From NCBI GenBank assembly GCA_964586315.1, contig CAZPHE010000001.1, positions 29,125-93,124 of the forward strand: a stretch of 64,000 nucleotides of DNA, in the 5' to 3' direction. The number at the start of each line of letters is the position of its first letter. The first letter of the stretch is position 1. This document shows, piece by piece, positions 3,976 through 28,049 of the stretch. The position numbers and the translations under genes were made by a program. The notes under the pieces were generated by a model. The model ran no database searches and was not told the origin of the DNA. It saw only the letters and a program-made list of their open reading frames with translations. This DNA is from an uncultured bacterium (GTDB taxonomy: Bacteria > Fidelibacterota > Marinisomatia > Marinisomatales > UBA1611).

Positions 3976-4425
3976 TTATTCACCCAATTTATTCGAAAAA
4001 TAAAAACTACAAACAAATAATATAGTTAATATATATATTATGGGCAAAAATGGAGATGAGGGTAAAAAGGTGAACACTAAATAATAAACACCAATTAACA
4101 TAATAAACAAAACTACTTGAATAGTGTTTCGAGCCAATTGTGTACCTAATCGTGTTACATAAGTATAAGCAATGATCAATAGTCCGACAGAAATTAACCA
4201 CAATCCAAAAAATTTGTATATAACTCTTAGATAAGATGGCAAGTGTGTATTAATCTTTGCTGAAAATAAATTCTTAAATGCTGTTTTTAATAATTTCTCA
4301 TTCGGAAGCTGGTCTAATAACCAAGGCTCTGGATGTAAATACCAAAATAAACCCATAACCAGAGCTATCAACCCTATTAATACAATTGGAATCCAAATTA
4401 AATTATGAATTAAGCGTTTATCCAT
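3976..4425 (-). CDS. small integral membrane protein, unknown function
   Basis: 149 aa with about four hydrophobic helices. Its start overlaps the upstream gene stop by 8 nt. No recognisable motif. Confidence 0.4.
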   Translation of the reverse strand: MDKRLIHNLIWIPIVLIGLIALVMGLFWYLHPEPWLLDQLPNEKLLKTAFKNLFSAKINTHLPSYLRVIYKFFGLWLISVGLLIIAYTYVTRLGTQLARNTIQVVLFIMLIGVYYLVFTFLPSSPFLPIIYILTILFVCSFYFSNKLGE

Positions 4426-8060: not shown

Positions 8061-8312
8061 GTAGAACTCCGCAAATGTAAGCCAAAATTGACTTCATGAA
8101 TTTTAATCATCAGAGTAGAATTAAAGCAAGAGATAACTAAAAAGGTTTAAGCTCTATTATATAGTAGGTTATTAAGTTTTTATGGTGAGTTTGAAAGGGG
8201 CGTTTATCATATTTCTCATTACATTACATTAAAACCGTGTTGTTTTTAACGCTATTAATTAATTATTCAATTGATCACTTGATATCAATTGTTTAGTAAA
8301 TAAAATTTGATC

Positions 8313-9383: not shown

Positions 9384-9427
9384 ATTATATAGTGAATTCT
9401 CAGTGACAATAGATTCAGGAGGCAATT

Positions 9428-10249
9428 ATGAAAGTCATTGATCCAAAAAGTGTAATTATTGGTGCGTTGGCCACTCTATTAATTTTTATTTTTTTAGGAT
9501 TAAGACCAAAAACTGATGAACTAGGTCATTTGGTTGTCCGTAGTTTAACTATAGAAGATGATCGTGGTGTTATAATGGGTTATCTTGGCAATGGGTATAT
9601 GCAAACATATAATCAATATGGTGAACCCACATTATTTATTGGCACTGGTAAAGATGGTGGTGGCTACATGAGAGCATATAATGGAAATGGTGATGAATCA
9701 GCATATGTGGGTACAGGGCGAATGGGAGGAGGATATATTAGAACATATAATAATTCTCAAAAAGAAACTTCATATCTTGGCACTGGTTCAGATCATGCCG
9801 GGCAGCTTAGAATTTATAATAAAGATGGTGCAACTTCTTCTTATCTAGGTGAAGGATACTACCAAGCATACAATCAATTTGGTGAAAGAACTCTCTTTTT
9901 AGGAACTGGTATTAGTGGAGGTGGTTATTTAAGAACTTATAATTTTGATGGCCAAGAAACAGTATATCTGGGAACCGGTGCTGACAGCTCAGGTCAATTG
10001 CGTGTATATGATTTTGCAGGAGAAACAGGAACATTTTTAGGTAGCGGTTATTTTAGAACTTATAATCAGTTTGGAAAAATGACAACCTATCTTGGGAATG
10101 GAAGAGATGGAGGTGGTTATTTAAGAACAAATAATAAGTTTGAAACTGAAACTGCTTTTCTTGGTACAAACAATTCAAATGAAGGCCTAATAAATCTTAA
10201 TGACAAATTTGGTCAAAGTTTTTGGATACGTCTAAATAAGGGTGATTGA
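9428..10249 (+). CDS. membrane-anchored Gly/Tyr/Asn-rich repeat protein, unknown family
   Basis: GGAGG Shine-Dalgarno motif 6 nt upstream. N-terminal TM (VIIGALATLLIFIFLGL). About ten degenerate repeats of 20-24 aa of the form GGGY[LMI]R[TA]YN..G.E..YLGTG. Confidence 0.5.
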   Translation: MKVIDPKSVIIGALATLLIFIFLGLRPKTDELGHLVVRSLTIEDDRGVIMGYLGNGYMQTYNQYGEPTLFIGTGKDGGGYMRAYNGNGDESAYVGTGRMGGGYIRTYNNSQKETSYLGTGSDHAGQLRIYNKDGATSSYLGEGYYQAYNQFGERTLFLGTGISGGGYLRTYNFDGQETVYLGTGADSSGQLRVYDFAGETGTFLGSGYFRTYNQFGKMTTYLGNGRDGGGYLRTNNKFETETAFLGTNNSNEGLINLNDKFGQSFWIRLNKGD

Positions 10250-10384
10250 TTTTTTATACAATTTTTTGACTTTAAGCTCTTAATTTATTAACTTTTAGAA
10301 CAAAAGGTATCCGAGAGGGGGATGAAACATGGCTTCATCCGTTAAACCTCATATTTTTCATACTCAGATAAGAAGGACTTGACC

Positions 10385-13300
10385 ATGCGGAAAATATTGG
10401 TTATTCCAACTAGTCTTTTATGGGTTTTGTTTGCTCAGAATGATGGTTTGGTAAAAACATATTATCCCAGCAAAGCGCTGAAAACAGAAGGGAACTATAC
10501 CAACGGTGTTCGAGATGGACTCTGGACATTTTGGTATGAAGGAGAATTATTTCAAGATTACGGTGCAGACCGATTACCTGAAACTAATGACCCTGGAGAA
10601 GGAAATGGGATTTGGGATATAGATACAGCAGCAGGGACATCAGAATTAGTTCTCATAGATTTTGATGGCGATAGTATTTATGATCCTCCAAATAAAAAAA
10701 TGGAGGGTTCTTATTCCGAAGGCAATAAGGAAGGACTATGGACAATCTGGTATTTAAATGCAATGCGTAAGGAAGAATCTAATTATACAGCTGGTCGGCT
10801 TGATGGCGCCATTATCAAATGGTTCGAAAATGGGACAAAATCAGAAGATGGTATTTACCACGCTGGTAAACAAAACGGTAATTGGATTTGGTATTATGAA
10901 ACCGGAATAAAAAAAGAACAAACTTCTTTTTTAGATGGGCAACAGGAAGGTCTTTGGACTCAATGGTTTCCAGATGGAACAAAAAAATCCGAAAGAAATT
11001 TTACCAATGGAGAACGAGACAACATCTGGACATCTTGGTATGAAAACGGAAACAAAAAATTTCAGGCTACATATTCTAATGGAAAATTAAATGGGAGTTG
11101 GACATCCTGGTATGATGGTGGTATAGTAAAAGAAAAAACAGGAGAATACTTTAACAATAAAAAAGATAAAAAATGGACCTTTTGGGAAGAAAATGGTCGT
11201 AAAGCAGAAGAGGTATCATTTGATAAAGGAATTAAAAACGGTCCTTATACATTCTGGAACACTGATAATATCAAGATAATAACGGGTAGTTATCTTGATG
11301 GAAAAAAACACGGTATCTGGATCTTACAATATGATAATGGCACAATAAAAACTGAAGAAAGTTATTCAAATGGCAAAATGGATGGCGCTTGGAAATGGTA
11401 TAGATCTGATGGACTTAAATTCCGTGAAGGAAATTATAAAAATGGTCTCAAACACGGACTCTGGACATCTTGGAATAATGCTGATCATAAAAAAAGTGAA
11501 GAAACATATGTAAATGGTATTCTAGATGGATTAGTAGTAATCTGGCATGAAAACGGAAATAAAGATCGTGAGGGAATCATTCGAGGTAACGAATTAGAAG
11601 GAAATTGGACTTATTATAATGGAGATGGAACTACTGATTTTAAATTTGATTATGGTACAGGATTAGATCGGGTTAGAATTGTAGAGCTTGAAGAGCGGGA
11701 CGGTATTTTTCTTAAAGTAGGTAAAAATAAACCATATACAGGAATAGTTGTTGAATCTGGAGGCATAAAAGATTATTTATTATTAGGAAGATTTCAATCT
11801 GGTAGGCGAGACGGACAATGGGTCCAGTGGTACAGGAATGGAGAAAAAGAAGTTGAAGGAGTGTATTATAAAGGGAAAAAAAATGGAGAATGGACTCTTT
11901 GGTATGAAGATGGAACTTTAAAAGAACAAGGGCAGTTTGATTTGGATGAAATTGATGGAATATATAAGTATTGGTATCCTAATGGACATTTACAAATGGA
12001 ACAAACCTACCAGAAAGGCAAGCCTAATGGTCGTTGGACTTGGTGGTTTGAACATGATCACAACCTAAGTTTTACAGATGGTAAGTGGTCTTATAATGGT
12101 GTGACATATGTTGCAGAAAACAATGATGAGTTATGGAATTGGTGGTGGTATTTAAATGATAATAAAGAAATGGAAGGATATTATATGGATGGTCGGAAAA
12201 ATGGTATTTGGACTTGGTGGTATGATACAGGGGTAAAACAATCCGAAGGTAATTATATAGAAAATGAGCAAGACGGTTTATGGTCTTATTTTGCTCCTGA
12301 TGGCTCTATTGATGAGGAAATAAATTTTTCTGGAGGAAAAAGAGATGGTAGATCAACATTATGGCTTACTCCTGAAGAAAAACAAGAAGAAAAATTTTAT
12401 AGGAATGGTAAATTAGATGGGCCAAGTACATATTGGGAAAATGGCCATCGAAGTACTATGACAACTTATAAAAATGATTCCCCTGGTGGACCTTGGGTAA
12501 TTTGGTATCCAAACAGTGATCAAATTAAAGAACAAGGTTTTCATCAAGATGGTATAAAAGAAGGTTTAACTACCTATTATTACGAAAATGGGACAATGCA
12601 ACGAGAAGGTTTTTTCAAAGAGGGTCTACCCGATGGTATTTGGACATATTGGAATGCCAAAGGGGAAAAAGATTTTGACTTTGATTTTGGTACCGGATTA
12701 GAACATATTGACCTTGAAGATTTAGTTGAACGTGAGTCTTTGTTTTTCAAAATCAATGAAGACACACCCTTTACGGGCATAATAACACAAGAAAATAAAG
12801 ATGCTGATTATCTGTTTTTAGGAAAAACAAATAATGGTAAAAAAGATGGAAATTGGGTCAAATGGTTCCCAAGTGGAAAAGATGTCCCAGAAATTATTAT
12901 TGTTGATGTTCCCACTCCTGAACCAGTTCTTCCATGGAGTGGAGGGAAGCAAGAGCAAGGCGCTTATAAAAATGGAGCAAAACATGGCTTATGGACGGAA
13001 TGGTACGATAATGAACATATTAAATCTCATGGTAATTATAATTCAGGCATAATGAGCGGCCATTGGACTTTCTATTATAAAAACGGAATTAAAGAAAAAG
13101 AGGGAATTCTAAAAGATGGAAATGCTGATGGTCTTTGGGTTTTTTATGATGATGAATCAAACAAATCCCAAGAAGGATCATTCACAAATGGTACCAAAGA
13201 AGGACAATGGACTGCATGGTTTGAAGATGGACGCATGACAGAAGGGTTCTATTCTAATGGTAAAAAAGATGCAACCTGGACGAGTTGGTGGGATCATAAT

Positions 13301-13417
13301 AGAACCAGAAAAGAAATGCAAGGTGCATATAAAAATGGTAAAATGGTTGACAAATGGTTTTTTTATGATAAAAATGGAAACTTAAAAGAGATTAGATATT
13401 TCTCTCCAGATTTTTAG
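10385..13417 (+). CDS. giant MORN/YwqK-type repeat protein
   Basis: About 1010 aa made of dozens of Y.NG...G.WT.WYENG.K..E units typical of MORN-variant (YwqK-like) repeats. Signal-like N-terminus. ATG at 10385, and the track TTG is at 10379. Confidence 0.7.
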   Translation: MRKILVIPTSLLWVLFAQNDGLVKTYYPSKALKTEGNYTNGVRDGLWTFWYEGELFQDYGADRLPETNDPGEGNGIWDIDTAAGTSELVLIDFDGDSIYDPPNKKMEGSYSEGNKEGLWTIWYLNAMRKEESNYTAGRLDGAIIKWFENGTKSEDGIYHAGKQNGNWIWYYETGIKKEQTSFLDGQQEGLWTQWFPDGTKKSERNFTNGERDNIWTSWYENGNKKFQATYSNGKLNGSWTSWYDGGIVKEKTGEYFNNKKDKKWTFWEENGRKAEEVSFDKGIKNGPYTFWNTDNIKIITGSYLDGKKHGIWILQYDNGTIKTEESYSNGKMDGAWKWYRSDGLKFREGNYKNGLKHGLWTSWNNADHKKSEETYVNGILDGLVVIWHENGNKDREGIIRGNELEGNWTYYNGDGTTDFKFDYGTGLDRVRIVELEERDGIFLKVGKNKPYTGIVVESGGIKDYLLLGRFQSGRRDGQWVQWYRNGEKEVEGVYYKGKKNGEWTLWYEDGTLKEQGQFDLDEIDGIYKYWYPNGHLQMEQTYQKGKPNGRWTWWFEHDHNLSFTDGKWSYNGVTYVAENNDELWNWWWYLNDNKEMEGYYMDGRKNGIWTWWYDTGVKQSEGNYIENEQDGLWSYFAPDGSIDEEINFSGGKRDGRSTLWLTPEEKQEEKFYRNGKLDGPSTYWENGHRSTMTTYKNDSPGGPWVIWYPNSDQIKEQGFHQDGIKEGLTTYYYENGTMQREGFFKEGLPDGIWTYWNAKGEKDFDFDFGTGLEHIDLEDLVERESLFFKINEDTPFTGIITQENKDADYLFLGKTNNGKKDGNWVKWFPSGKDVPEIIIVDVPTPEPVLPWSGGKQEQGAYKNGAKHGLWTEWYDNEHIKSHGNYNSGIMSGHWTFYYKNGIKEKEGILKDGNADGLWVFYDDESNKSQEGSFTNGTKEGQWTAWFEDGRMTEGFYSNGKKDATWTSWWDHNRTRKEMQGAYKNGKMVDKWFFYDKNGNLKEIRYFSPDF

Positions 13418-16163: not shown

Positions 16164-16889
16164 TTATTTTACCTTTTCGAAATAATCTCTATAGCTAAAT
16201 ATTTTTGGATTCATTGATAATATCCTATTTAGATCGTTTCCTAAACCCAATTCTAAATCATTTGGATGTATAGAAACCCGTAATGGCGTATTTTTTATTT
16301 TGGAATAAATCCTATTCATTTTATTTAATCCTTTCACTGCTATTATTCTAATTAAGTTATCAGCTTCATAACCCACCAAGGGTAAAGTATGGAATTCCCC
16401 ATTATGATAAACACCTGAAAGGGTTTCATATAATTTATATGGTAACACAGATAAGTCTTCCCAAGTAACGTTACCAAGGGCCCAAGCAGGCGGGATATAA
16501 ACATAGGGTGCGTTCAGATCATTCTCGTCAAACCATTTTGCACATTTAAACATCAATTGTATAATTTCTTTTGATGATAAGCTCAAGTGTTCTGCTACAT
16601 TTCTAGACATTATTAAACTATGAAAATAATGATATGCATTCTTTTTAGAACGAGCTCTATGATTCCATCCGTGCCCGGCTAAATCAAAACCACAATTCTG
16701 AAGATAATGCAATTGTTCTATTTGTTTTTTATTCCAGGAACGACCAGGGACTATAAGACAAGTTGCTGAAACAATTTTTTTATTAGCCAACAAATCTATT
16801 AATTTGATAACATCATCAAGAGTATCTGGCATAATATCATGAATGGATAGAATAATTGAATGATTTGACTTATTCATTACTAAGCGCAC
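16164..16889 (-). CDS. polysaccharide-deacetylase-like protein (DUF2334-type)
   Basis: IILSIHDIMPDTL...LIVPGRSWN...GFDLAGHGWNH resembles the predicted-deacetylase fold with a metal-binding Asp/His pattern. It overlaps the upstream GT gene stop. Confidence 0.5.
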   Translation of the reverse strand: MRLVMNKSNHSIILSIHDIMPDTLDDVIKLIDLLANKKIVSATCLIVPGRSWNKKQIEQLHYLQNCGFDLAGHGWNHRARSKKNAYHYFHSLIMSRNVAEHLSLSSKEIIQLMFKCAKWFDENDLNAPYVYIPPAWALGNVTWEDLSVLPYKLYETLSGVYHNGEFHTLPLVGYEADNLIRIIAVKGLNKMNRIYSKIKNTPLRVSIHPNDLELGLGNDLNRILSMNPKIFSYRDYFEKVK

Positions 16890-17997
16890 TTTGAAAAGTT
16901 TTTTTAGAAAGTTCTTTTAATATATCTATCCAAGTTGCAATGTTTTCTTTATTAAGTGTATGGGCTGAAAAATATGCTTTTTTGACTATAGTGTCACGTT
17001 CTTTTTCAGACATATTCATTACAAAGTCTATAGATTCTGATAGAGAATCAAAATCATCCATATTAATTAAATTTTTTGCTAAAAGGGGCCATTTGTTTAT
17101 GCCAGATTGACCCGACACTATAACGATACGTCCACGAGCCATGCCTTCGAAAGCTGCTGTTCCAAATGTTTCTATGAATGAAGGTAATACGAATATTTGA
17201 CTCTGATCGATTACATCAATTAATTCACTTCTAGAGAGCCATCCAAGATAGGAAATATTGTTCAACTGATAAGTATAATCAATTATTGTTGATTTCAGTG
17301 GCCCTTCACCAGCAAAAATAAATTCTACATTCTTATGATCTTTAGCAGCATTTATAATTTTATCAACACCCTTCTCTGGAGCTAATCGCCCTGCAAATAA
17401 TATTTTATTTATTTTTTTATTTATAGGAGATAAAGGACGATCAGAGAATATTTTAGCAAGAGGTGTTCCAATAATTTCCACTTTTTTACTGCCCAATTTT
17501 TTAGCTATGTTTTCCATATCTTTATTTACAATTAAAGATATAGGTGAAGATTTAAAAAAGAATTTATTTACAAAGGTTCCAATATTATTCACTAGGTAAG
17601 CTTTCACACCTTTCCAATACAATTTTGCCATTTCGTCATAATCATTATGCAATACTGGACAAATTGAAATATTTAATTTTTTAGCTTTTCCTAATGCTAC
17701 TAAACCATAAAATCCCGGAGTAGGAAAAATAATTACATCAGGAGATTTTTCTTTAATTATATTGGCCAACTTAAACATTTTTGGAAAATATAAACGCTGG
17801 GTAGCATCTCCAGGCATAGATATGGAAAAAAAGGTATATGAATCGTCTAAACGCTTTGGTCCAATAATTTCGATATGGCTTATATAATCTTTTAAATGCT
17901 CACATAAGTCTCGATAAAAACTTCCTACTCCATTGCGCTCTGAAAGGACATCTAAAATTATTAGAACGTTTAATTTGATTTTTTTGGTTTTTATCAT
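16870..17997 (-). CDS. glycosyltransferase, GT4 family (GT-B fold)
   Basis: N-terminal NGVGSFYRDL, and a C-terminal Glycos_transf_1 pattern ...FAGRLAPEKGV...FAGEGP...LPSFIETFGTAAFEGMARG (E-x7-E region). Confidence 0.8.
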   Translation of the reverse strand: MIKTKKIKLNVLIILDVLSERNGVGSFYRDLCEHLKDYISHIEIIGPKRLDDSYTFFSISMPGDATQRLYFPKMFKLANIIKEKSPDVIIFPTPGFYGLVALGKAKKLNISICPVLHNDYDEMAKLYWKGVKAYLVNNIGTFVNKFFFKSSPISLIVNKDMENIAKKLGSKKVEIIGTPLAKIFSDRPLSPINKKINKILFAGRLAPEKGVDKIINAAKDHKNVEFIFAGEGPLKSTIIDYTYQLNNISYLGWLSRSELIDVIDQSQIFVLPSFIETFGTAAFEGMARGRIVIVSGQSGINKWPLLAKNLINMDDFDSLSESIDFVMNMSEKERDTIVKKAYFSAHTLNKENIATWIDILKELSKKTFQSALSNE

Positions 17998-18027
17998 TTG
18001 TGGAATGATTTGTTAAAATATAAAATT

Positions 18028-19176
18028 TTATTTTTCTGAATCTAAAAATAAATAAATATTTTTTAATCGGTTCATTATATTCTGTGTTTTTAAATCGAAT
18101 TCATTTTTATTGTAACGATGTTTACTTTTGTATTTTCGTGAGTAAACAGCTGAATCATTAACGCTCTTTTCGTAATCTCTACTGGTCCTTAAAGAAAATT
18201 TATTATAAATCAATTTTATAGTATTTTCTAATTCATCTTGAATATCCGGCATAGAAAAAACAATCCAATGTGTTTTTTCTTTAGAAAAATGATATTTCGA
18301 AATACAATTATAATAATAATCCATCATATCAATTATTTTTTTTCTTGTATATTCAATACCTAAATCATTATTGAAAGATAACCAACCTTTTCTCATAACG
18401 CTTAATATTGATGGTACAGCTTTCTCAGGTTTTCTAATACAACAAACAAGATTCAAATCAGGGAACGTTTTTTTCAGATCATTTATCCAACCTGAGAAAG
18501 ACGCGTTTTTTGATAAATATCTTCGATTATATCCATAAACATACATATGTCTTTGGATTAATTTTTTATATATTATCATTATTTCTCTTCTTTTTACCAT
18601 ATTAAACTCTTGATCAAAAAATGCAAGATCCCAAATTTCTTTGTACGGAAAAGGGAAAATCAAAAGAAAACAAGCCATATAAGGCATTAAAAGGATAAAA
18701 TCTTCTTCTGGAGATTCTAAACCCGTTTTATGTGTCTCATGTAACATACTTAAAACACCTGACTCAATTGATTGAAATAATTTTTTTATAGGATATCCAA
18801 TTGCACGATCAATAAAAAAAAAATATTTTAAGATAATTTTTTGTGTAATTGCAGGTGCAAATATCATTTCTCCTAATGTACATGTAGTAAAGTTTGTTTT
18901 GTCTTGTGATAAAATTGAATGAAGAAAAGTTGTACCACTCCGAGGTACCCCAACAATAAAGAGCGGTTTGATTATGTTTATTTTTTTAAAAGATGGAAAA
19001 AATAAATTATCTAACAAAAGAAATAGACGATTAACTATTTGGAGTATTCCAAAAAAAAGAATAAAAATCATTATTTTCAAAGAACGAATTACAGAAAATT
19101 TCATTTGATTATTAACGAATGGATTAAAGATTCGAAAAAAATATTTTATTAATAGTTTAAGACCTATATAATTCAT
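18028..19176 (-). CDS. membrane-anchored sulfotransferase
   Basis: Hydrophobic N-terminal helix followed by the PAPS 5'-phosphosulfate-binding loop GVPRSGTTFLHSIL. The start is uncertain, either MNYIG at 19176 or an internal MKFSV. Confidence 0.7.
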   Translation of the reverse strand: MNYIGLKLLIKYFFRIFNPFVNNQMKFSVIRSLKIMIFILFFGILQIVNRLFLLLDNLFFPSFKKINIIKPLFIVGVPRSGTTFLHSILSQDKTNFTTCTLGEMIFAPAITQKIILKYFFFIDRAIGYPIKKLFQSIESGVLSMLHETHKTGLESPEEDFILLMPYMACFLLIFPFPYKEIWDLAFFDQEFNMVKRREIMIIYKKLIQRHMYVYGYNRRYLSKNASFSGWINDLKKTFPDLNLVCCIRKPEKAVPSILSVMRKGWLSFNNDLGIEYTRKKIIDMMDYYYNCISKYHFSKEKTHWIVFSMPDIQDELENTIKLIYNKFSLRTSRDYEKSVNDSAVYSRKYKSKHRYNKNEFDLKTQNIMNRLKNIYLFLDSEK

Positions 19177-19296: not shown

Positions 19297-20232
19297 TTAT
19301 TCTACCATTTCCCCACCAGAAAGAATATCCTCTAAATTAAATTCACCATCCTTTTCCATTTTTTTTGCTGCATCAACAATTTTTTTCCGAGCATTATCTA
19401 CTTCTTTCTTTGAAACAGCACCTTCAACTGGTTCGTACATAGCTTGACGCTTTTGAGGTTGCCCTGCAATAATTTCATCTACAATTTCTTGGTCCAATCC
19501 TTTTACAGCATAAGCTAAATCTGTCAGATCAGTTTGAACAAACAATCCTCTCTTTAAATTCTCTGGAAATTTTTCTATAATATCATCAAAGGTAAGAAAA
19601 TACATTTTTACGCTAGCATAGAGTTCTGGATTTTCATTTTGGAGAGTCTGCATATATCTTTCTTGATCATTAGAATCCATACCACTAAGTGCATCAGCGA
19701 TGTCCTTTGCGCCTCCCCTTGAAAACTCTGTTGTACGAGGAAGATATGTGGACTTTTCTTTTAACCTCGCACCAACTTCTATTACTCCCTCTAATGGAAC
19801 ATCATCTAAAGATCCTAATTCTATTAGGACTTCTCCTTTTAATGCCGGGTCTAACTTATTAAGAACAAACATTTTTTTCTCTGGATCAAGTTGAGCCAAG
19901 GTCATAGCAATAACAGGAGTGTCTTCTTTGTCAACCAATGCAAATAATTGTTCGTCAGTTAATTCATTTAAAAACTCGAATGGTTGAATTGGTTTCCCAT
20001 TTTTATCATCACCACCAAATTCTTCACTCAAAAACCCAAAATAGAACTCTTCCATAACGCGTTTCTTTACAGAAAAAGATACAGAATCCATTCCACGTAA
20101 TGTTGAACGGATTTTTCTTACTTCAGTTTTTGATAGGCCTTTAATCAAAGACATTGCTAGGCCTTCTCCAACTACTGAGAAAAGCACTGCTACTTTTTGA
20201 AGACCTGAAAGCCTATTATAATCATTAATCAT
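19297..20232 (-). CDS. fliG: FliG-like rotor protein (three-domain FliG architecture, divergent)
   Basis: N domain LSGLQKVAVLFSVVGEGLAMSLIKGLSKTEVRKI. Middle domain FEFLNELTDEQLFALVDKEDTPVIAMTLAQLDPEK. Linker and C domain FSRGGAKDIADALSGMDSNDQERYMQTLQNENPELYASVKMYFLTFDDI...LAYAVKGLDQEI...GEF. These are colinear with canonical FliG blocks (GxxKAAILL..LGEE, EHPQ region, GG linker, DPELA..I...MFxFEDL, ALKGA). GAGGT Shine-Dalgarno motif upstream. Confidence 0.8.
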   Translation of the reverse strand: MINDYNRLSGLQKVAVLFSVVGEGLAMSLIKGLSKTEVRKIRSTLRGMDSVSFSVKKRVMEEFYFGFLSEEFGGDDKNGKPIQPFEFLNELTDEQLFALVDKEDTPVIAMTLAQLDPEKKMFVLNKLDPALKGEVLIELGSLDDVPLEGVIEVGARLKEKSTYLPRTTEFSRGGAKDIADALSGMDSNDQERYMQTLQNENPELYASVKMYFLTFDDIIEKFPENLKRGLFVQTDLTDLAYAVKGLDQEIVDEIIAGQPQKRQAMYEPVEGAVSKKEVDNARKKIVDAAKKMEKDGEFNLEDILSGGEMVE

Positions 20233-20250: not shown

Positions 20251-22038
20251 TTATTCATCGCCGCTTTCTTCTTCATCGCTATCACTAGCATCAGATTTTT
20301 CTTCTGAAGGAGTCGCAATCTCTGGGGCGGGTTGCTCTAGCCACTCTTTAACAATTGTAGACGTTTTCATCGGCTGTCCCACGCTCATTGAAACAATAGA
20401 TTTTCGAATATCATCAATTTCACTTTTTAAGACATTTGGATCTATATCTGGACTTGTACTATCTAATTCATTATTACCATTAGGTGATGCAGCTTGAGCT
20501 TCCATTGCTGCTATCTGCGCAGCAGTTGGTTCACCAGGAGATTTTTCATCGGTTAGTTTACTTTCCCCTTTTTTTTCTTCTTTTTTTTCAGTTTTTCTTT
20601 TTCTTTTCCTTCGTCTTGGTGGCGGATAAGGATATGGTGGCATCGGCGGTGGATACTGCTGTTGTGTATTTTTACCTTTTTGCAAGAATACCATGAGCAA
20701 CAAACCTACACTTACGACTCCTAAAGCTATTATCATTATCATCTTAGTATCAAAACCTTGGGTCGCTTCGGCTTCTAAAGCAGCAAGGTCTGCCTGAACT
20801 GCATCAAGTGCCGCTATTTTTTCAGCAATAATTGAGTCCCTAGAAGCTTTTTCTTTTTCACGTGATGTCAGTTCTTCCTGAATTTTTGCCTGTGCCTTCT
20901 GTTGAGCCTCAAGTGAATCTTGTAAAATTGCTTCTAACAACATTGTTCTTAAACTCTGCATTTCGTTATCAAGCATGGCAAACCGTGTTGAATCAAGTCT
21001 CTTCTCTTTGACTTCGTCTTCGGATTCATTCATAGACAGCATATCTTTTAAAGCTTGAATTTCTGCTTCTAGTTTTGAATTTCTAACAGAATCTTTTCTC
21101 GCTAATTCTTTCTTCTCATACTCTGCGGCTGCTTCTAATCGCGCTTTTTCTAAATTTGAAAGTTGCTCTTCAAAGCTTTCCAAATTTTCAATTCGTTGAG
21201 CATCAGCTTCTTTTTTATAATTAGCAATGTCATCTCTCCAATTACTTGATTCGTTTAATCTCTTTTGTTCCATCATGTCTATTTTTTCAGCTATGTTTTT
21301 TAACATTACTTGTTCAGCAGTGCGCTGATCGCGCCTTTCTTTAAAACTTGCTGTCATAATTGTTAATTTATCACCTCTTTCTCGATCAAATTTTGCAGCA
21401 GCCATTGTCAATTGACGAATATTTTCAATCAATTCTGGCGCTGCTCCTTCTTGGAGAATAAGAGACAACTCCATTCGCTTCACAACAGTTTTTGATGGGC
21501 GTTTTGTTGAAAGAACTTTATCAACAATTTCTTTTTGAACTTCGGACCCATCCCTATCTATATCAACGGTTGATTCAAGTGTCTTAGGTGAAATGGGCAT
21601 TGATTTTGTTAAAGGACCAGGGTCGCTGGATTTAGGTGTCGTCACATCAACTTCAAATCCAGGTATAGGCAATCCAATAGAATAACTGTTATTTTTATTC
21701 TGTTCGTTTTCATTAACCATTTTTTCTTGTATTTTAACCAATGCATCTGCTGTTTTTTCGGCTGGCGAAAGGGTATTATTTTGTTTTTTTTCTAATGCTC
21801 TTGGTGCATAATAAGTAAACTGTTCATTCACTTCATTTAGTACTTCTAATTCCACATCAACATTGATAACATATTTATGCGACTCAATAAGTTTTGATAA
21901 GGCATCTTTTATTCGCTCACGAATATTGTTTTCCACCATTAATTTTTGGGAAAGATACCCACCTCCCTGCGCAACAAGCAATGTGATTACCATCGCGGCA
22001 CTAATGATGGGTATTAAAAAATTTTTACCCTGTTTCAT
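20251..22038 (-). CDS. FliF-like two-TM ring protein with long periplasmic coiled coil and basic/Pro-rich cytoplasmic linker
   Basis: TM1 at aa ~7-23 and TM2 at aa ~433-452. FliF/YscJ-like ring-building blocks IRERIKDALSKLIESHKYVINVDVELEV and VKRMELSLILQEG..IENIRQLTMAAAKFDRERGDKLTIMTASF. About 195 aa of coiled coil. PPPMPPYPYPPPRRRKRKRK linker. C-terminal IVSMSVGQPMKTSTIVKEWL resembles the FliG-binding end of FliF. AAGGAG Shine-Dalgarno motif 6 nt before the ATG. Confidence 0.5.
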   Translation of the reverse strand: MKQGKNFLIPIISAAMVITLLVAQGGGYLSQKLMVENNIRERIKDALSKLIESHKYVINVDVELEVLNEVNEQFTYYAPRALEKKQNNTLSPAEKTADALVKIQEKMVNENEQNKNNSYSIGLPIPGFEVDVTTPKSSDPGPLTKSMPISPKTLESTVDIDRDGSEVQKEIVDKVLSTKRPSKTVVKRMELSLILQEGAAPELIENIRQLTMAAAKFDRERGDKLTIMTASFKERRDQRTAEQVMLKNIAEKIDMMEQKRLNESSNWRDDIANYKKEADAQRIENLESFEEQLSNLEKARLEAAAEYEKKELARKDSVRNSKLEAEIQALKDMLSMNESEDEVKEKRLDSTRFAMLDNEMQSLRTMLLEAILQDSLEAQQKAQAKIQEELTSREKEKASRDSIIAEKIAALDAVQADLAALEAEATQGFDTKMIMIIALGVVSVGLLLMVFLQKGKNTQQQYPPPMPPYPYPPPRRRKRKRKTEKKEEKKGESKLTDEKSPGEPTAAQIAAMEAQAASPNGNNELDSTSPDIDPNVLKSEIDDIRKSIVSMSVGQPMKTSTIVKEWLEQPAPEIATPSEEKSDASDSDEEESGDE

Positions 22039-22079: not shown

Positions 22080-22961
22080 TTAACTTTCCTCCTCTTGGTA
22101 TGATGTCCCTGATCGCCCTTTACCATGATGTGGAGGATTAATAAAAGTAATTTGAATTCTTCTATTGCCCGATTTTTGTTTTTTTGTCTTATTAAGTTCC
22201 AAAACGGTAGGAATAGGATTGCCTTTTGAATCTGTAGATATGCCTTTATCACCCCAAGTTAAGGTTAGTGGATTATACATTGGGTTAACACTCTTTATAC
22301 TATCAATACCCCTTGGATACCAATCCCCATAACCTGCTGCTAGTAATCTTGGGGCCGGTACGCCTTTATCAATCATATATCGCACACACGTTGCACCTCT
22401 TGCAGCTGAAAGTTCCCAATTACTTTTGTAAAATTTTTGCCACTTTTTAGGCATAGGGTCACTGTCTGAATGCCCTGCTACTTCTACTTGAAATGGACTT
22501 GCCAAAATTCTAGGTATAATTTCTTCATCTAACAACTTTTTAAGTTCACCTTTCATATCTGCTTTACCTGAAGGAAAAGCAAAATCACCCTTTATATTTA
22601 CGATCAAACCTTTCGAACTAGTTTGAACAGCGGGATTTTCTTTTTTCATTTCTTCAATAGCTTCTTTCATCTCTTTTTTCATCTGAGCTAAATTTTCTAT
22701 CGGTTCAAACTCACCTTCTTCTTCAGCTTTTCCCTCAGCCTTAATTTTACTACCAAGTGATTTACCTTGAGAATTTGCCATCTCTTGAAGCTTAACAGGG
22801 TCCATTGTGGAGATTGCTGCTAATAGAACAAAAAAGGCGAAAAGTAGTGTCATCATATCAGCAAAAGTACCAAACCATCCTGGAAGACCCTCCTCAATAG
22901 AATTAGCGCCTTCTTCAAAACCCTTGTTAAAGGCTTTTTTTTCGCCAGGTGTCATCGCCAT
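22080..22961 (-). CDS. motB: MotB-type stator subunit with OmpA-like peptidoglycan-binding domain
   Basis: Single TM carrying the conserved channel Asp (WFGTFADMMTLLFAFFVLL). C-terminal OmpA-like motifs VEVAGHSDSDP, SNWELSAARGATCVRYM, AAGYGDWYP, NRRIQITF. It follows motA after 5 nt. Confidence 0.85.
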   Translation of the reverse strand: MAMTPGEKKAFNKGFEEGANSIEEGLPGWFGTFADMMTLLFAFFVLLAAISTMDPVKLQEMANSQGKSLGSKIKAEGKAEEEGEFEPIENLAQMKKEMKEAIEEMKKENPAVQTSSKGLIVNIKGDFAFPSGKADMKGELKKLLDEEIIPRILASPFQVEVAGHSDSDPMPKKWQKFYKSNWELSAARGATCVRYMIDKGVPAPRLLAAGYGDWYPRGIDSIKSVNPMYNPLTLTWGDKGISTDSKGNPIPTVLELNKTKKQKSGNRRIQITFINPPHHGKGRSGTSYQEEES

Positions 22962-22966
22962 TTAAT

Positions 22967-23752
22967 TTAATCCCGTTTCCATTCTGCTGGAGGTATAAAT
23001 GAGTTGAGTTTTTCTCTAACAATAATTGGATGTTTCTTTTGATGAATTAGGCGAGAAGCCTCTACAAGTAAATTAGCAGACATAGATGTCTGTGTAGTTT
23101 TATTTCCCATTTTTTGAGCCATGGGTAGAAAAAACAAATTTGCGAATACTGCACCATAAAGGGTTGTGATCAAAGCAGCGGCCATACCTCCTCCAAGATT
23201 ATCAGCTCCACCTTCACCACCAAAACCCGCTAACATAAGAACGAGACCAATCAAAGTCCCAACCATACCCCAAGCGGGCGATAAATCACCCATGGATTTT
23301 AACATATCTGTTTGAACCTTTTCACGCTTCTCTCTATATTCAATTCTTGTTTCTAAAATTTCTGTTACTTCCTCAAGAGAGTATCCATCAGCCACCATTT
23401 GGACGCCATCTCTGAAGAAAAAATTTTGAATCCCGCCGGCTGTATTTTCTAAATCTGTTGGCGCCTTCCTATATGCCTCCGCAGTATCCACTGCCATATC
23501 TACCAAAGGACCCATTTTATCATCTGCTGGTTTTAAAACAGCACCTATAGCCTTTCCTAAGGCCGCAACATGATACATTGGGAACGCTACCATAACAGAT
23601 GCAAGCATGCCCCCAAACACAATTCCAAAACTTGGAATCGAAATGAAGTTGCCAAATCCACCGGCTGCACCTTCAACAAATAAAGCGTAGGCAATACTAC
23701 CTACCATAAATGCCATTCCTAAAACAACACCAATAATTAGAGCAATATCCAT
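22967..23752 (-). CDS. motA: MotA-type stator subunit (4-TM MotA/PomA layout)
   Basis: 261 aa with two N-terminal TM helices, a ~100-aa charged cytoplasmic loop (DGYSLEEVTEILETRIEYREKRE), then TM3/TM4 with conserved Pro contexts (SPAWGMVGTLIGL and LFFLPMAQKM). The GAGGAG Shine-Dalgarno motif is formed by the last codons of the upstream gene. Confidence 0.85.
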   Translation of the reverse strand: MDIALIIGVVLGMAFMVGSIAYALFVEGAAGGFGNFISIPSFGIVFGGMLASVMVAFPMYHVAALGKAIGAVLKPADDKMGPLVDMAVDTAEAYRKAPTDLENTAGGIQNFFFRDGVQMVADGYSLEEVTEILETRIEYREKREKVQTDMLKSMGDLSPAWGMVGTLIGLVLMLAGFGGEGGADNLGGGMAAALITTLYGAVFANLFFLPMAQKMGNKTTQTSMSANLLVEASRLIHQKKHPIIVREKLNSFIPPAEWKRD

Positions 23753-23756
23753 AAGG

Positions 23757-25196
23757 TCACTCCTCGATCAAATTTGCAGATTGTAATTTATTTTCATTAA
23801 GAGCTTTAAGAATATTTCTTACATCAGTATACTCAGGATCCAAACGTAAAGCAAGATTCCAGTTTATTGTAGCTCTTTGCACATCACCTAATTTATAATA
23901 GATAGAACCTCTTCTGGCATAAGCTAATGCTAAATTAGGATTTAATTCTAAGGATAGATCAACTTCTTTCAAAGCTTCTCGATAATCACCGGCATAAAAA
24001 TACCTTAGTGAGCGGGAAAGATGTCTCATAGCCTCATTCATATTCTTTTCAGATACATTGGTTTCAAGCTTTAAAGAACTCAACGAATCAGATAGGAATC
24101 TACTATTCTGCTCCATAGCATTTAGACGCACTAAAAGATTGCGCATTTCATTATTCATTAATGCCATTGAATCCCTTAACGTCTCTACTGCTACATTAGC
24201 CATTACAATTGTAGAATCTCTATGCAAAGAAATTGTTTCTGGGTAGTCAGTTCCATCATCAGAAGGTCCATAAATATTTGTGGGGCTGGATGGGCCACTA
24301 CGTATTCTACGTAAAGGATCTCTTGGTACCATCATAGTCAAACCCAACGAAAGACCAGGGTGCCCTGCCCAATATCGATTTTTCCATCCTGGAAGTTGAT
24401 CTAAGTGGGTGAACCCTAAGTTCAGGCGGTAATCCGAGGTAAGGGGGATGCGGAGTCCCACATTGACACCTGTCCCATCGAATTCACCCACAATATCCAT
24501 TCCACCCCATTGTCCAAAAAATGGGGTTTTCAATAAAAAACCAACAAATACTCCAGAGCTTGTTTCAGTATTTGATCTTAATGAATCTGAAACAAATCGT
24601 GCTGTATCAGGATGCGCAAGACCGCCACCTATCTCTGGAACTAATGCAGGAGGAGCTAATCCTCCTGTTCCGAAACCCATAAAAGTATTCATTTTATATT
24701 CGCCTAAATCTTTTTCACTGCCAAGCACAGTAAAGAAAGATAAAAGAGAAGTATTCAGACTGAGTATCTGATCTGAGGTCTGTTCACTCTCGAACACAAC
24801 ATCTTGTAAGCCGACCGATAGAGAAATATCATTATAAGTGTAAACTCGTTGTTGAAAATGAAACCCGAACTCAACGGGTGGGTTATATGTAGAGTTTTCC
24901 AATGAATAACCACTTTGCCATGGGTTTATACGTGTTGTATCGCCAGGTATAACAGCAGAAAAACCAAAACTAAAACCCCTGCTTATTTCCATATCAAAAA
25001 AAAGACCCCCTGCAGTATTAAAAGGATTAAGATTATGAATCTCAGTCCCAAATCCAGTACGAAATAAATAGGGTGATACTGTATTACTTGATGTTGGGAT
25101 GCGCATCATCATTCCAGGTCTAGAATATGCAACGCGCGTACCTGATAATGCGGTAGACGTAATGAAAAAAACAGTTATTAGAAATTTAATTTTCAT
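23757..25196 (-). CDS. secreted envelope protein: Gly/aromatic-rich beta-type N-domain, coiled coil, C-terminal TPR
   Basis: Signal peptide (MKIKFLITVFFITSTALSG). About 300 aa of alternating Gly/aromatic sequence (GFSFGFSAV, GFHFQQRVY, GVNVGLRIPL, LNLGFTHL). Coiled segment (LRDSMALMNNEMRNLLVRLNAMEQ). TPR-like YYAGDYREALKEVDLSLELNPNLALAYARRGSIYYKLGDVQRATINWNLALRLDPEY. Confidence 0.5.
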   Translation of the reverse strand: MKIKFLITVFFITSTALSGTRVAYSRPGMMMRIPTSSNTVSPYLFRTGFGTEIHNLNPFNTAGGLFFDMEISRGFSFGFSAVIPGDTTRINPWQSGYSLENSTYNPPVEFGFHFQQRVYTYNDISLSVGLQDVVFESEQTSDQILSLNTSLLSFFTVLGSEKDLGEYKMNTFMGFGTGGLAPPALVPEIGGGLAHPDTARFVSDSLRSNTETSSGVFVGFLLKTPFFGQWGGMDIVGEFDGTGVNVGLRIPLTSDYRLNLGFTHLDQLPGWKNRYWAGHPGLSLGLTMMVPRDPLRRIRSGPSSPTNIYGPSDDGTDYPETISLHRDSTIVMANVAVETLRDSMALMNNEMRNLLVRLNAMEQNSRFLSDSLSSLKLETNVSEKNMNEAMRHLSRSLRYFYAGDYREALKEVDLSLELNPNLALAYARRGSIYYKLGDVQRATINWNLALRLDPEYTDVRNILKALNENKLQSANLIEE

Positions 25197-25225: not shown

Positions 25226-26413
25226 TTACTGATATTCTTCCCAATCAATGACATAAGAATAACCAATAAACGTACCAAAGTCTTGGGGAACATAAAGATC
25301 AAATTTCCCATTAGCGCCAGGAAGCAAACTGGCATCAGAAACAATTCCTGTGTCAAATGTATTGTATGAACCTTTAACAAAAGTTGTTAAAGTTCTGGTT
25401 TCCCCACTCCAGTTTTTTCGAAAAACAAAATCTACTTTTACAAAGTCAGCTCTACGACCACCAATATTTTTAATTTCTCCATCAAAAATTATATTCCCTT
25501 GACTGTCTTTTTTCTCCGCTATATTTCCAACCAATACACAATTAGCAGATAGTTTAGCGCTGGCGAGCCTTGCAGAATTATTTGATGATGTATATCTCGG
25601 TTGCGCTAACTTAGGCATTGGCGGAGGAGTATAGCTCTCACGAATCTGTTCAGGAACATATTCCTGAGTATCTTCAGTTATGACATTATCAACAATCCGA
25701 ACAACCTGTGTCCGATCAACGATTAAATAGCCCACTAAGGTTTCTACTTTAAGTGATTTGTCATCTTGATAAATAATTTTACCAAAAACAGTACTGCCAT
25801 TTTTCAAAATAATTTCTTTGGAATAAATAGTAAGCGGGTTTACCCACATTTTACTTAAAGCTTTTAGATCATCTAGATCTTGCGTTAAATGTTTTAGTTC
25901 AGCGTTAAGTTTTTTTATTTCAAAATTTAGTTCATTTATAATAAAATCTTTACTCGGGGCACCCATTGCCTCCATCGTTTGAGGTACTGATATTGATACA
26001 TTTTTAGGTTGCTTGTCTTGATTAGGTTTAGATTCCTCATCTCCAATTTGTTGATCAGAAACAATTGCGCTAGGGTTTTCAGTTGATAACACAAGATCAC
26101 CTAAATCTTTATCATCAGTTAAAGTTATAATTTGTTCTATTGAACCTAAATCATCATGGGTCACCTTCAACATATATTCACCTTCTTCAAGTTTTTTAAA
26201 CTCAAAGGTTCCCTTCCGTCCTGTTTTTTCATCTGCAACTTCATCAGTTCCAGAAAGAAGAGTAACCGTGGCCTTCTTAACTTTCTCTCCATCTGAATCA
26301 ATAATTCTACCTGATAATTTAATTTTCCCTTTCGCAAATATGAGACTTCCCATAAGCGTAAAGGCAATAGTAGCGAATATATATCGCTTCTGCATGCTTT
26401 TTGATAGTGTCAT
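25226..26413 (-). CDS. secreted protein with carboxypeptidase-regulatory-like (CarboxypepD_reg) domain, coiled coil and C-terminal beta-sandwich-like domain
   Basis: Signal peptide. LSGRIIDSDGEKVKKATVTLLSGTDEVADEKTGRKGTFEFKKLEEGEYMLKV is a typical CarboxypepD_reg block. Short coiled coil (FEIKKLNAELKHLTQDLDDLKAL). GAGGT Shine-Dalgarno motif 5 nt upstream of the ATG. Confidence 0.5.
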   Translation of the reverse strand: MTLSKSMQKRYIFATIAFTLMGSLIFAKGKIKLSGRIIDSDGEKVKKATVTLLSGTDEVADEKTGRKGTFEFKKLEEGEYMLKVTHDDLGSIEQIITLTDDKDLGDLVLSTENPSAIVSDQQIGDEESKPNQDKQPKNVSISVPQTMEAMGAPSKDFIINELNFEIKKLNAELKHLTQDLDDLKALSKMWVNPLTIYSKEIILKNGSTVFGKIIYQDDKSLKVETLVGYLIVDRTQVVRIVDNVITEDTQEYVPEQIRESYTPPPMPKLAQPRYTSSNNSARLASAKLSANCVLVGNIAEKKDSQGNIIFDGEIKNIGGRRADFVKVDFVFRKNWSGETRTLTTFVKGSYNTFDTGIVSDASLLPGANGKFDLYVPQDFGTFIGYSYVIDWEEYQ

Positions 26414-26542: not shown

Positions 26543-27127
26543 TCATTTCCAAAATTCTTTCAATTGTTTTTCTCTTTTCATAATTAGAGAATATTCTGCT
26601 TCAGTGGCCTTTCTTAAATGGCTGGGCAGAACTAACTCCAGCGCCATTTCGTACGATTCACTAATAAGATCAAAATCGGTATCACCTATTTTTTGATAGC
26701 ACTGACCTATATAATAATGTGGCTCTCCTAATTGAGGTTGTAGTTGAGATGCTTTATAATATTTCAGTATTGCTTCCCACAAACCATCTTTATTACCCTT
26801 ATCAAGTAACGCATGACCTTGAGCAATAAAAAGATTATATAGAGACAATGTGTCTTCTCCACATAGCTCTACCGCGCGCGAAAAATGGCCTATGGCTTTT
26901 TTATAATCATGATCGTTCAGTGCAAATTTCCCAATTGTATTGTGTGATGTTATCAATGCATTTTTAATTTTTTTCGTGGGGTTGTTATTTAATAATGAAT
27001 CTTCCATTATTATCAGAGCATCTGGATTTTCTTCCGCAATAATTTGGTATTTTACATTGGAGCATCTCCAATTACTTATCATAATAATTGATAAAAAACT
27101 AAACCAAAATATTACATTATCCTTCAT
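26543..27127 (-). CDS. TPR repeat protein with N-terminal hydrophobic segment
   Basis: TPR-like helices (YKKAIGHFSRAVELCGEDTLSLYNLFIAQGHALL; WEAILKYYKASQLQPQLGEPHYYIGQCYQKIGD). I prefer the start MKDNVIFWFSFLSIIMI at 27127, which overlaps the upstream stop by 11 nt. The track start is 27184. Confidence 0.55.
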   Translation of the reverse strand: MKDNVIFWFSFLSIIMISNWRCSNVKYQIIAEENPDALIIMEDSLLNNNPTKKIKNALITSHNTIGKFALNDHDYKKAIGHFSRAVELCGEDTLSLYNLFIAQGHALLDKGNKDGLWEAILKYYKASQLQPQLGEPHYYIGQCYQKIGDTDFDLISESYEMALELVLPSHLRKATEAEYSLIMKREKQLKEFWK

Positions 27128-28049
27128 ACCAAAACAGATCCTCACGATCTTTAAAAGATTGATACAGGAGATCCATTGATTCAATCACATAATAACGATC
27201 TTGTATATCGCTATAATCAAAACAGGTCATTACGATTTCTTCGATATCAAAATTTTTAAATTTAGATCGATGTGATAATCCCTTTGCGCAATTGATAACA
27301 TTATTTACTTCATCGTATGAAGAAATAATACCGGCACCATATATTTCATAATCTATATCATTAGCTACTCTTCGTAATTGATCTGCTGTGCTGTTGTTTT
27401 TAAGCAATCCATATTCATATGTCCACCATGCAAAATTTTGTAATCGTTTTAAATTATGCGATACGAGATCTTTTCCCAATCCTCGATCATCTTTAAGAAT
27501 TTTATTTCCTAAAACACCAATTTCCCACATGAATTGCGCATAATCTTTATTCATTAAAAAGGGTACATGCGCTTGAACATCATGAAAAATATCTGGCTCA
27601 GGCGTATATCCTGAATCGTTTTGGATGTCTACATCCGAATATTTTTCTGCAAACCTTGGTGATTTCCTAATTATATCCGTTACAGGAAATTGCCGCTTTG
27701 TGTTGATTTCAAAAAATAACTCCTCATCTAAAAAGCCCGCCACAGGTAACAAAGTCCAACCTGTTGAATTTTCTATTAACGGTGAAATAGCTTCAAATTC
27801 CGGGAACATATTATTGGGGATCGGTAAGGTGCGCAAACCCATTAAATACTCTTTTGATGCATATTGATCTAAATAAAACTCCAGTTTTTGGAATAGCTCT
27901 GCCCAGATTTTATTTTCTAAATTGGTGATCTCATCATATCTCTGCCTTTTAATATATGAGTCATTTATTCCAAATATTTTAATCCCATCTATACTATTAG
28001 GTATTATATTCTTAAAAAGGTGATTGTATTTTGTCGATTTAGAAACCAT
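27117..28049 (-). CDS. phhA: aromatic amino acid hydroxylase family protein (phenylalanine-4-hydroxylase-like)
   Basis: Iron-ligand motif EPDIFHDVQAHVPFL (H-x4-H). WWTYEYGLL matches the YWFTVEFGL Glu-ligand block. IYGAGIISSYDE and the TGW..LPVAGF substrate-region pattern are present. Confidence 0.8.
   Translation of the reverse strand: MVSKSTKYNHLFKNIIPNSIDGIKIFGINDSYIKRQRYDEITNLENKIWAELFQKLEFYLDQYASKEYLMGLRTLPIPNNMFPEFEAISPLIENSTGWTLLPVAGFLDEELFFEINTKRQFPVTDIIRKSPRFAEKYSDVDIQNDSGYTPEPDIFHDVQAHVPFLMNKDYAQFMWEIGVLGNKILKDDRGLGKDLVSHNLKRLQNFAWWTYEYGLLKNNSTADQLRRVANDIDYEIYGAGIISSYDEVNNVINCAKGLSHRSKFKNFDIEEIVMTCFDYSDIQDRYYVIESMDLLYQSFKDREDLFWYEG

Follow-up and report, generated by a model that had tools for sequence, protein, structure and literature searches.

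FliG, FliF and stators of the MotAB type count as flagellar components. In the flagellar motor, the EHPQR motif on the middle domain of FliG (FliG_M) is the docking surface for FliM, a charged ridge of FliG (K264, R281, D288, D289, and R297 in Escherichia coli) contacts the cytoplasmic loop of MotA, and the ring-building motifs RBM1 and RBM2 of FliF house the flagellar export gate. The 64 kb stretch of contig CAZPHE010000001.1 analyzed here (the window; 34% guanine plus cytosine), from a member of the Marinimicrobia/Neomarinimicrobiota (SAR406), contains a FliG-like open reading frame (ORF) at 19297..20232 that closes a putative six-gene operon, referred to below as the cassette. We consider it moderately probable that the cassette encodes a filament-less, switch-less rotor–stator module that descends from the flagellar motor or is sister to it.

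The nearest published precedent found is the chlamydial FliF–FliG(M) fusion of non-flagellated bacteria, in which FliG-like sequence is attached to a reduced FliF (Bergeron 2016, PMC4768692), and which has been proposed to act with the injectisome (PMC4768692). The chlamydial protein is ~330 aa long, contains a FliG_M-like region only and has no MotAB, whereas the window encodes a full FliG and stators (PMC4768692). The closest described stators are PomAB and MotPS (FIT/TGI4 class, PMC12505986), with which the cassette shares full-length similarity, an R/K...E loop, a plug, a channel Asp and an OmpA-like anchor; the window stator differs from them in scoring below the NCBIfam equivalog cut-offs and in its context without a flagellum. 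A 2025 stator survey regards the torque-generating loop of MotA as a feature confined to flagellar motility (PMC12505986). GldLM, from type IX secretion system (T9SS) and gliding machinery, and the Tol-Pal/ExbBD-TonB systems offer a functional analogy only, as ion-driven inner-membrane motors that work across the periplasm via an extended helical protein. Unlike the cassette, they have no FliG/FliF ring and their A subunits are of a non-flagellar class, and no homology of the cassette to their periplasmic parts was detected with Pfam or NCBIfam. No published description of the cassette was found in full-text literature searches.

A three-domain FliG homolog with an altered FliM-docking site

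The ORF is a genuine three-domain FliG homolog. Pfam places FliG_N, FliG_M, and FliG_C above their gathering thresholds in the armadillo-like N-M-C order with a Gly-Gly hinge (Table 1), bearing out the colinearity with FliG that had been proposed by eye in an earlier, sequence-only reading. All significant phmmer matches in the PDB are FliGs, led by those of Thermotoga maritima (1lkv, E = 1.4e-20) and Aquifex aeolicus (full-length, 3hjl, 8e-17) and including those of Helicobacter pylori and Salmonella. The AlphaFold 2 (AF2) model, computed from an input alignment of 89 canonical and non-canonical FliGs, has a mean predicted local distance difference test score (pLDDT) of 92. Its top Foldseek matches are full-length FliG structures (E ~1e-10), and its single domains align to FliG_M and FliG_C crystal structures with TM scores of 0.77–0.87 and root-mean-square deviations of 1.5–2.2 Å. 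The PDB matches, model confidence, Foldseek results and domain superpositions together confirm the FliG fold. The linker glycines G173 and G174 are present in all 167 of the distinct Marinimicrobia FliG orthologs on which the ortholog counts in this study rest, and the MFxF block of FliG is retained as 'FLTFDD', both as the sequence-only reading had it. G174 and E103 are the sole invariant columns in the 89-sequence alignment. The Pfam family MgtE_N also matches the ORF (34.5 bits). FliG and MgtE_N have a known relationship, which accounts for this match, and an MgtE Mg2+ channel was rejected, as the ORF has no CBS or transmembrane (TM) part.

The FliM-docking site has been replaced. HMMER pairs 'SEHPQTIAVVLSYLDP' of T. 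maritima FliG with 'KEDTPVIAMTLAQLDP' of the ORF, and 'EVLKRIALL' with 'EVLIELGSL' ('LKRIA' versus 'LIELG'), and MAFFT, run on 96 full-length relatives, gives an identical register. The Glu of the motif is kept as E103, while His, Pro, and Gln become D104, T105, and P106, and the Arg (R160 in T. maritima) becomes E138. The earlier assignment of an EHPQR loss, with the Arg of the LRIA block aligning to IELG, thus withstands rigorous alignment. The replacement is kept among the orthologs, with E103 in 167/167, E or D at position 104, T or P at position 105, P106 in 155, and E138 in 158. As judged from these alignments, the loss is not drift of one genome, since the replacement residues are conserved throughout the set.

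Compared with canonical FliGs (1lkv, 3hjl, Salmonella 8umd/8wiw), the window protein shares the N-M-C fold, Gly-Gly hinge, MFxF-type block, EHPQR Glu and equivalents of K264 and R281, and is likewise encoded beside a FliF-like gene and MotAB. Unlike them, it is shorter in the N domain (311 aa vs. about 335), lacks the H, P, Q, and R of EHPQR, and has a torque helix that is three residues shorter and carries a conserved Pro. The FliG equivalog model TIGR00207 scores the ORF at 107 bits against a cut-off of 226.7. Given this shortfall and the missing docking motif, the protein is filed as a member of a FliG-family paralog lineage and not as a flagellar switch protein.

A re-spaced torque segment and a conventional stator loop

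The torque region of the C domain reads Q260-KRQAMYEPVEGAVSKK-276, within which the string K261-G271 had been correctly given in the earlier reading, and is three residues shorter than that of T. maritima FliG in both HMMER and MAFFT alignments. In strict register, K264 is kept as K244 and R281 is conservatively changed to K261, whereas D288 and D289 are opposite a gap and P268, and R297 is opposite S274, so that two of the five torque charges are in register with FliG. The initial description of most torque-helix charges as lost is therefore right for D288, D289, and R297 but overstated, both because K244 and K261 stay in register and because the flanking charges are conserved in the orthologs. 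Position 261 is K in 162 and R in 5, position 262 is R in 98 and K in 63, E267, P268, and E270 are found in 154, 152, and 149, respectively, position 275 is K in 150 and R in 17, and position 276 is K or R in 166 (107 R, 59 K). The resulting + + − − + + pattern has the canonical order with altered spacing, and the term re-spaced would appear, from the alignments, to fit the torque charges better than lost. The AF2 model contains a helix at 260–265 only, followed by a loop (266–274) and a further helix (275–294).

Three deep-branching members of the phylum (P0124, P0129, and P0132) retain the full-length torque helix 'IILEDEMQLLEGPQPRR' ('LEDEM...GPQPRR'), so the shortening is derived within the phylum. 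Two length variants thus exist side by side, the full 'IILEDEMQLLEGPQPRR' and the shortened 'AMYEPxEG..[KR][KR]'. Both (the former in the three deep-branching proteins; also compared were the window and L047:8094-9026) pair with an invariant 'ARK..LEK' in MotA.

MotA aligns over its full length with PDB entries for Clostridium sporogenes MotA (8ucs, 1.3e-32) and PomA (8brd, 3.6e-30), 'KARREGLLSLED' pairing with 'EAYRKAPTDLEN' in the alignment. Its R95, K96, and E102 ('ARK-G..DLEK') are invariant in 29 Marinimicrobia loci, which include both torque-helix variants. The top NCBIfam models are MotP and PomA, with scores below their cut-offs. MotB is matched in Pfam by MotB_plug (4e-15) and OmpA (1.4e-8), has MotD and the MotB family as its top NCBIfam models while remaining below every equivalog cut-off, and evolves with a ratio of non-synonymous to synonymous substitution rates (dN/dS) of 0.02–0.04. 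With a MotA that has four TM helices and a large cytoplasmic loop bearing Arg and Glu, and a MotB bearing a channel Asp, a plug and an OmpA-like domain, the pair has the hallmarks of a flagellar-type stator, and the stator side looks conventional, not modified. The proposal of a modified stator interface accordingly divides in two: the FliG side is re-spaced on a truncated helix, but R95, K96, and E102 of MotA do not vary. A search for co-variation linking the torque segment of FliG to the loop of MotA yielded no usable signal, because the MotA residues are invariant and both helix variants pair with 'ARK..LEK'.

Threonines are present in the MotA motifs 'GTLIG' (aa 165) and 'LITTLYG' (aa 194), at what we take to be the positions where PomA binds Na+. 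Since the nearest families are the Na+-type MotP and PomA and these threonines are present, Na+ coupling of the stator in a marine host is plausible.

The FliF-like protein, the operon, and its relatives

The only Pfam family matched by the FliF-like protein is YscJ_FliF_C (28.3 bits vs. a cut-off of 23.8), and PF08345 is carried by 120 of its 120 homologs. The RBM1/RBM2 family, PF01514, was not detected in Pfam searches at E ≤ 0.01. The protein thus has TM1 and TM2 but falls outside the definition of a canonical FliF of the membrane/supramembrane (MS) ring, which combines RBM1, RBM2, and RBM3 (PF01514 and PF08345). Its C-terminal tail motif '...SVVSMSVGQP..TSTIVKEWLEQP' is strongly conserved and, as we take it, resembles the C-termini of FliF. 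Comparison with PDB sequences gave coiled-coil noise only, and an AF2 model from a 30-sequence alignment (pLDDT 60) left the RBM unfolded and was confident only for long helices at aa ~201–453.

The six genes are tightly packed on the minus strand in the order CPD395, TPR479, MotA, MotB, FliF-like protein and FliG, the first two encoding a 395-residue exported protein and a 479-residue secreted protein with C-terminal tetratricopeptide repeats (TPR). The same order recurs in 38 species-level genomes and in the deep phylum branches L041, L047, and L048. Proportions of non-synonymous differences (pN) are 0.05–0.2 against saturated synonymous ones (pS ~0.7), giving dN/dS ≤ 0.1 for all four core genes. 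The operon is phylum-wide and under strong purifying selection. In nearly all genomes the cassette occupies a fixed core-genome site adjoining the pyruvate phosphate dikinase (PPDK) gene.

A Pfam search of every sizeable ORF found no fliM, fliN, or other flagellar gene in the window, and none was found in the 38 genome loci and 10 further contexts (~48 loci), which include the neighborhoods of orthologous cassettes where a switch gene would have spoken against the earlier reading. In these ~48 loci fliH, fliI, fliM, and fliN are never operon partners; the partners are TPR and secreted proteins. Some comparative-genomics studies of the phylum make no mention of flagella, motility, or chemotaxis.

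Beyond this phylum, FliF–FliG fusions of 600–770 aa emerged when 1.84 billion representatives were searched exhaustively with HMMER, with scores on a par with those of canonical FliGs. Their N-terminal half shares LExRL..YLG..FI..V, LPGLP, and RGDxLxI...F with the FliF-like protein and is followed by a TM helix and the FliG region. The hosts are Gammaproteobacteria, Pseudomonadales, other Pseudomonadota, and 'Deltaproteobacteria' metagenome-assembled genomes. The fusions have no EHPQR, reading 'EE[DE]xR[IV]KALVLSQL' and carrying E or A in place of the Arg. In a neighbor-joining tree of M and C domain columns (200 bootstraps), all 46 non-EHPQ proteins, comprising the Marinimicrobia type and the fusions, separate from 48 canonical FliGs in 189 replicates. 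Six loci (L040, L046, L049, L050, L052, and L053) combine a fusion with a TPR protein, MotA, and MotB in one operon, and fusion operons usually also encode a ~350–366-aa protein.

The fusions (e.g., P0161 from Saccharospirillaceae/Pseudomonadales and P0227 from Gammaproteobacteria) therefore resemble the window in their EHPQR-less FliG clade, RBM3-type motifs and TPR/MotA/MotB partners. They differ in that FliF and FliG are joined in a single polypeptide, there is no periplasmic coiled coil, the Gly-Gly linker is DG or NG, K264 is lost while the acidic torque-helix pair is kept, and a separate ~350–366-aa protein stands beside the TPR protein. The small TPR proteins of these loci are 35–39% identical to the C-terminal coil and TPR of TPR479. 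An origin of TPR479 by fusion of the ~350-aa protein and a small TPR protein was rejected, as only the TPR part is homologous (hhalign of the TPR479 N-terminal family against the 352-aa family: probability 0.5%). As far as found, FliF–FliG fusions of MotAB-TPR operons are undescribed in the literature. One further long protein, P0171 (996 aa), has a canonical FliG region with EHPQ and Arg at ~599–812 and clusters with the canonical FliGs, apart from the fusions. Genes adjoining fusion operons include CheR (L046:6180-7001), an ammonium transporter fused to a methyl-accepting chemotaxis protein (L050:12568-14814), a PilZ protein (L044:8456-8797), and a MoxR-DUF58-VWA block (L052:11496-14573); the signaling genes among them could hint at regulation, or may be coincidence.

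Absence of the docking motif here, in the 167 orthologs and in the fusions, the separate clade, the lack of fliM and fliN in the window and ~48 loci, and a FliF-like protein without detected RBM1/RBM2 all agree with the prediction, made in the sequence-only reading, of a rotor without a FliM/FliN switch complex, which is thus supported.

Table 1. Features of the cassette, with nucleotide positions in the window and residue numbers in each protein
Feature	Position	Strand	Basis or description
FliG-like rotor protein	19297..20232	minus	311 aa; Pfam, PDB phmmer, AF2, Foldseek
FliG_N	aa 8-70 = nt 20023-20211	minus	Pfam 1.3e-12, above gathering
FliG_M	aa 94-161 = nt 19750-19953	minus	Pfam 4.7e-11, above gathering
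FliG_C	aa 196-300 = nt 19333-19647	minus	Pfam 4.1e-18, above gathering
E103-D104-T105-P106 codons, site of FliG EHPQ	19915..19926	minus	only Glu retained
E138, site of EHPQR Arg (T. maritima R160)	19819..19821	minus	alignments
Gly-Gly linker G173-G174 between M and C domains	19711..19716	minus	kept
K244, equivalent of K264	19501-19503	minus	alignment
K261-K276, shortened torque segment 'KRQAMYEPVEGAVSKK'	19405..19452	minus	re-spaced + + − − + +, P268
FliF-like membrane protein	20251..22038	minus	595 aa; Pfam YscJ_FliF_C (PF08345)
FliF-like TM1	about aa 4-29	minus	hydrophobic segment
FliF-like RBM3-type domain	aa 47-232 = nt 21343-21900	minus	ends in 'RGDKLTIMTASF'
FliF-like periplasmic helical/coiled-coil region	aa ~233-427	minus	~200 residues
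FliF-like TM2	aa 428-455	minus	followed by Pro-rich/basic linker
FliF-like C-terminal tail 'DPNVLKSEIDDIRKSIVSMSVGQP..TSTIVKEWLEQP'	aa 533-570 = nt 20329-20442	minus	highly conserved
MotB-type stator subunit	22080..22961	minus	293 aa; plug, OmpA-like peptidoglycan-binding domain
MotB channel Asp D35 in TM helix	22857-22859	minus	
MotA/PomA-type stator subunit	22967..23752	minus	261 aa; PDB, NCBIfam
MotA loop charges R95, K96, E102	23447-23470	minus	conserved cytoplasmic-loop residues
TPR479, secreted protein	23757..25196	minus	479 aa; ~300-aa N-terminal domain without known fold, coiled coil, C-terminal TPR
CPD395, exported protein, first gene of putative operon	25226..26413	minus	395 aa; CarboxypepD_reg Ig-like domain, coiled coil, C-terminal beta-rich domain
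TPR protein upstream; module membership uncertain	26543..27184	minus	213 aa; Pfam TPR

Among the secreted partners, CPD395 is 49% identical over residues 97–395 in the deep-branching loci L041 and L047, where the TPR479 counterparts are 35–43% identical over the full length; the sole Pfam match of TPR479 is TPR, at aa 395–470. The upstream 213-aa TPR protein is syntenic in most loci, with 37–48% identity. The top sigma-70-like match of the region (11/12, 26496-26468 on the minus strand) lies just upstream of 26413 and is of consensus level only, and promoter and terminator scans were not above chance. In loci L028–L032 and L036 (about 4150–5046) a gap of ~900 bp separates the CPD395 and TPR479 orthologs; it is lacking in the window and most loci and may hold an extra cassette gene. 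Cassette genes at least 62% identical to those of Marinimicrobia occur in two short contigs assigned to unrelated taxa, L033 (SAR86 cluster bacterium) and P0305 (Woesearchaeota archaeon), most likely through binning errors. Between FliG and the convergent PPDK gene, the window has a minus-strand block (16164-19176) encoding DUF2334, a GT4 glycosyltransferase and a sulfotransferase, which is otherwise found in L002 only; elsewhere PPDK directly follows FliG.

Further away, two divergent genes (39541-41223, minus; 41294-42730, plus) encode proteins with Por_Secre_tail T9SS sorting domains above gathering, one with FG-GAP repeats and the other with Peptidase_M23 and Golvesin_C. Because of these two genes the host probably has a T9SS, and a SAR406 study describes many proteins with T9SS sorting domains (PMC5596340). 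Three consecutive genes at 8307-13417 (plus) encode repeat-rich secreted proteins: one of 358 aa with a weak RHS-repeat match, one of 273 aa with Gly/Tyr-rich repeats without a family, and one of 1012 aa with 'GxWxxWYxNG'-type repeats that are MORN/YwqK-like by eye.

Proposed module and alternatives

The SAR406 cassette probably runs a motor outside any flagellum. In the module proposed here, the ORF would be the cytoplasmic rotor ring protein of a machine without switch complex, export apparatus, rod, hook, or filament. The FliF-like protein would form the membrane ring, and its C-terminal tail would hold a ring of FliG-like subunits via their N domains. Peptidoglycan-anchored MotA5B2 units, turned by a flow of ions that may be Na+, would push the FliG C domain, with R95, K96, and E102 of MotA acting on K261, R262, E267, E270, K275, and K276. 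As FliM, FliN, and CheY input would be missing, rotation should be unidirectional, or regulated another way. The work would be done on the periplasmic side, transmitted by the ~200-residue helices that extend the FliF-like protein, and secreted TPR479 and CPD395 would be its likely recipients. Candidate loads are the energization of surface proteins or secretion, or envelope maintenance, and the machine is possibly linked to T9SS surface proteins.

Several observations weigh against this module. Flagellar genes could lie elsewhere in the chromosome, as their absence covers the window and ~48 loci; three fusion loci (L043, L044, and L051) have no adjacent motAB; and the ring-building fold of the FliF-like protein, suggested by a modest Pfam match and motifs, is poorly modeled by AF2. 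In the AF2 model the torque helix retains only ~6 helical residues beside a conserved Pro, a truncation that could mean that flagellar-type torque no longer reaches the C domain. Rotation, ring formation and contact of the FliF tail with FliG_N, as well as the ion used and the load, are all inferred.

A bolder form of the rotor–stator proposal, which we put forward tentatively, is that FliF(RBM3), FliG, MotAB, and TPR proteins constitute an autonomous rotary machine that never needed type III export. Such a machine would have diverged early as a sister of the flagellar motor core, or have spun off from it very long ago, and SAR406 and some Proteobacteria would retain it to power an envelope process by means of a coiled-coil shaft in the periplasm.

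It seems unlikely that the cassette is instead a static FliF–FliG platform or sensor recruiting MotAB-type channels, which might, for example, couple a periplasmic TPR complex to envelope stress or the flow of ions, in a Tol-Pal/ExbBD-like manner. A truncated, proline-broken torque helix and relatives without adjacent motAB would suit a static role, as would the coiled coil and TPR architecture of TPR479, which we take to resemble that of CpoB in Tol-Pal. However, the loop charges of MotA, known to us only for rotor contact, are invariant and the matching FliG charges are conserved; FliG retains its Gly-Gly hinge and ring-forming N-M-C architecture, and MotB has the plug and peptidoglycan anchor typical of torque-generating stators.

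Less probable still is an ordinary flagellum with its remaining genes at other sites in the genome, FliM docking to another surface of this FliG and the motif having been lost by lineage-specific drift. Every part of the cassette has a flagellar homolog, the stator is nearest to MotP/PomA, the gene survey extends to the window and ~48 loci, and neighboring phyla of the Fibrobacteres-Chlorobi-Bacteroidetes group are reported to have flagellar genes. A flagellar assignment nevertheless fits poorly with a FliF-like protein that has a ~200-aa coiled coil instead of detected PF01514, with a FliG below the TIGR00207 cut-off in a separate clade with the fusions, with TPR and secreted partners in place of fliH, fliI, fliM, and fliN, and with the silence of the comparative genomics papers noted above.

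Decay of a lost flagellum into a relic with no current function, which could have explained the missing motifs that flagella need and has a parallel in the few flagellar genes kept by non-flagellated Chlamydiaceae (PMC4768692), is effectively refuted by intact ORFs, a gene order kept across the phylum and in Proteobacteria, dN/dS ≤ 0.1 with saturated synonymous sites, and the conservation of the replacement residues. A Zorya-type MotAB anti-phage defense system is scarcely credible: PADLOC gives weak ZorB matches on MotB (48 bits) and a 14-bit ZorA2 match on MotA, but these come down to general MotB/OmpA resemblance, ZorC, ZorD, and any other effector are missing, PADLOC gives nothing on FliG, the FliF-like protein or the TPR proteins, MotA matches flagellar MotA/PomA from end to end without a long ZorA tail, and the cassette sits at a fixed core-genome site beside the PPDK gene.

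Returning to the rotor–stator module, the cassette keeps a torque-generating core at a locus without switch, export gate, or axial parts, and would be a counter-example to the flagellum-specific MotA loop of the 2025 survey (PMC12505986). If it rotates, it would put the flagellar motor core to a new use, offer a naturally minimal setting in which to study rotor–stator coupling without FliM/FliN, and provide a concrete handle on how the flagellar motor and secretion system were joined. There is a substantial chance that it belongs to an autonomous, undescribed class of FliG/MotAB machine. Were this so, it would be a living 'rotor plus stator without flagellum', and FliG and flagellar-type stators would not be exclusive to flagella. 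For SAR406, among the most abundant uncultured ocean phyla, the cassette would mean an unrecognized envelope machine, possibly tied to its many T9SS-type surface proteins.

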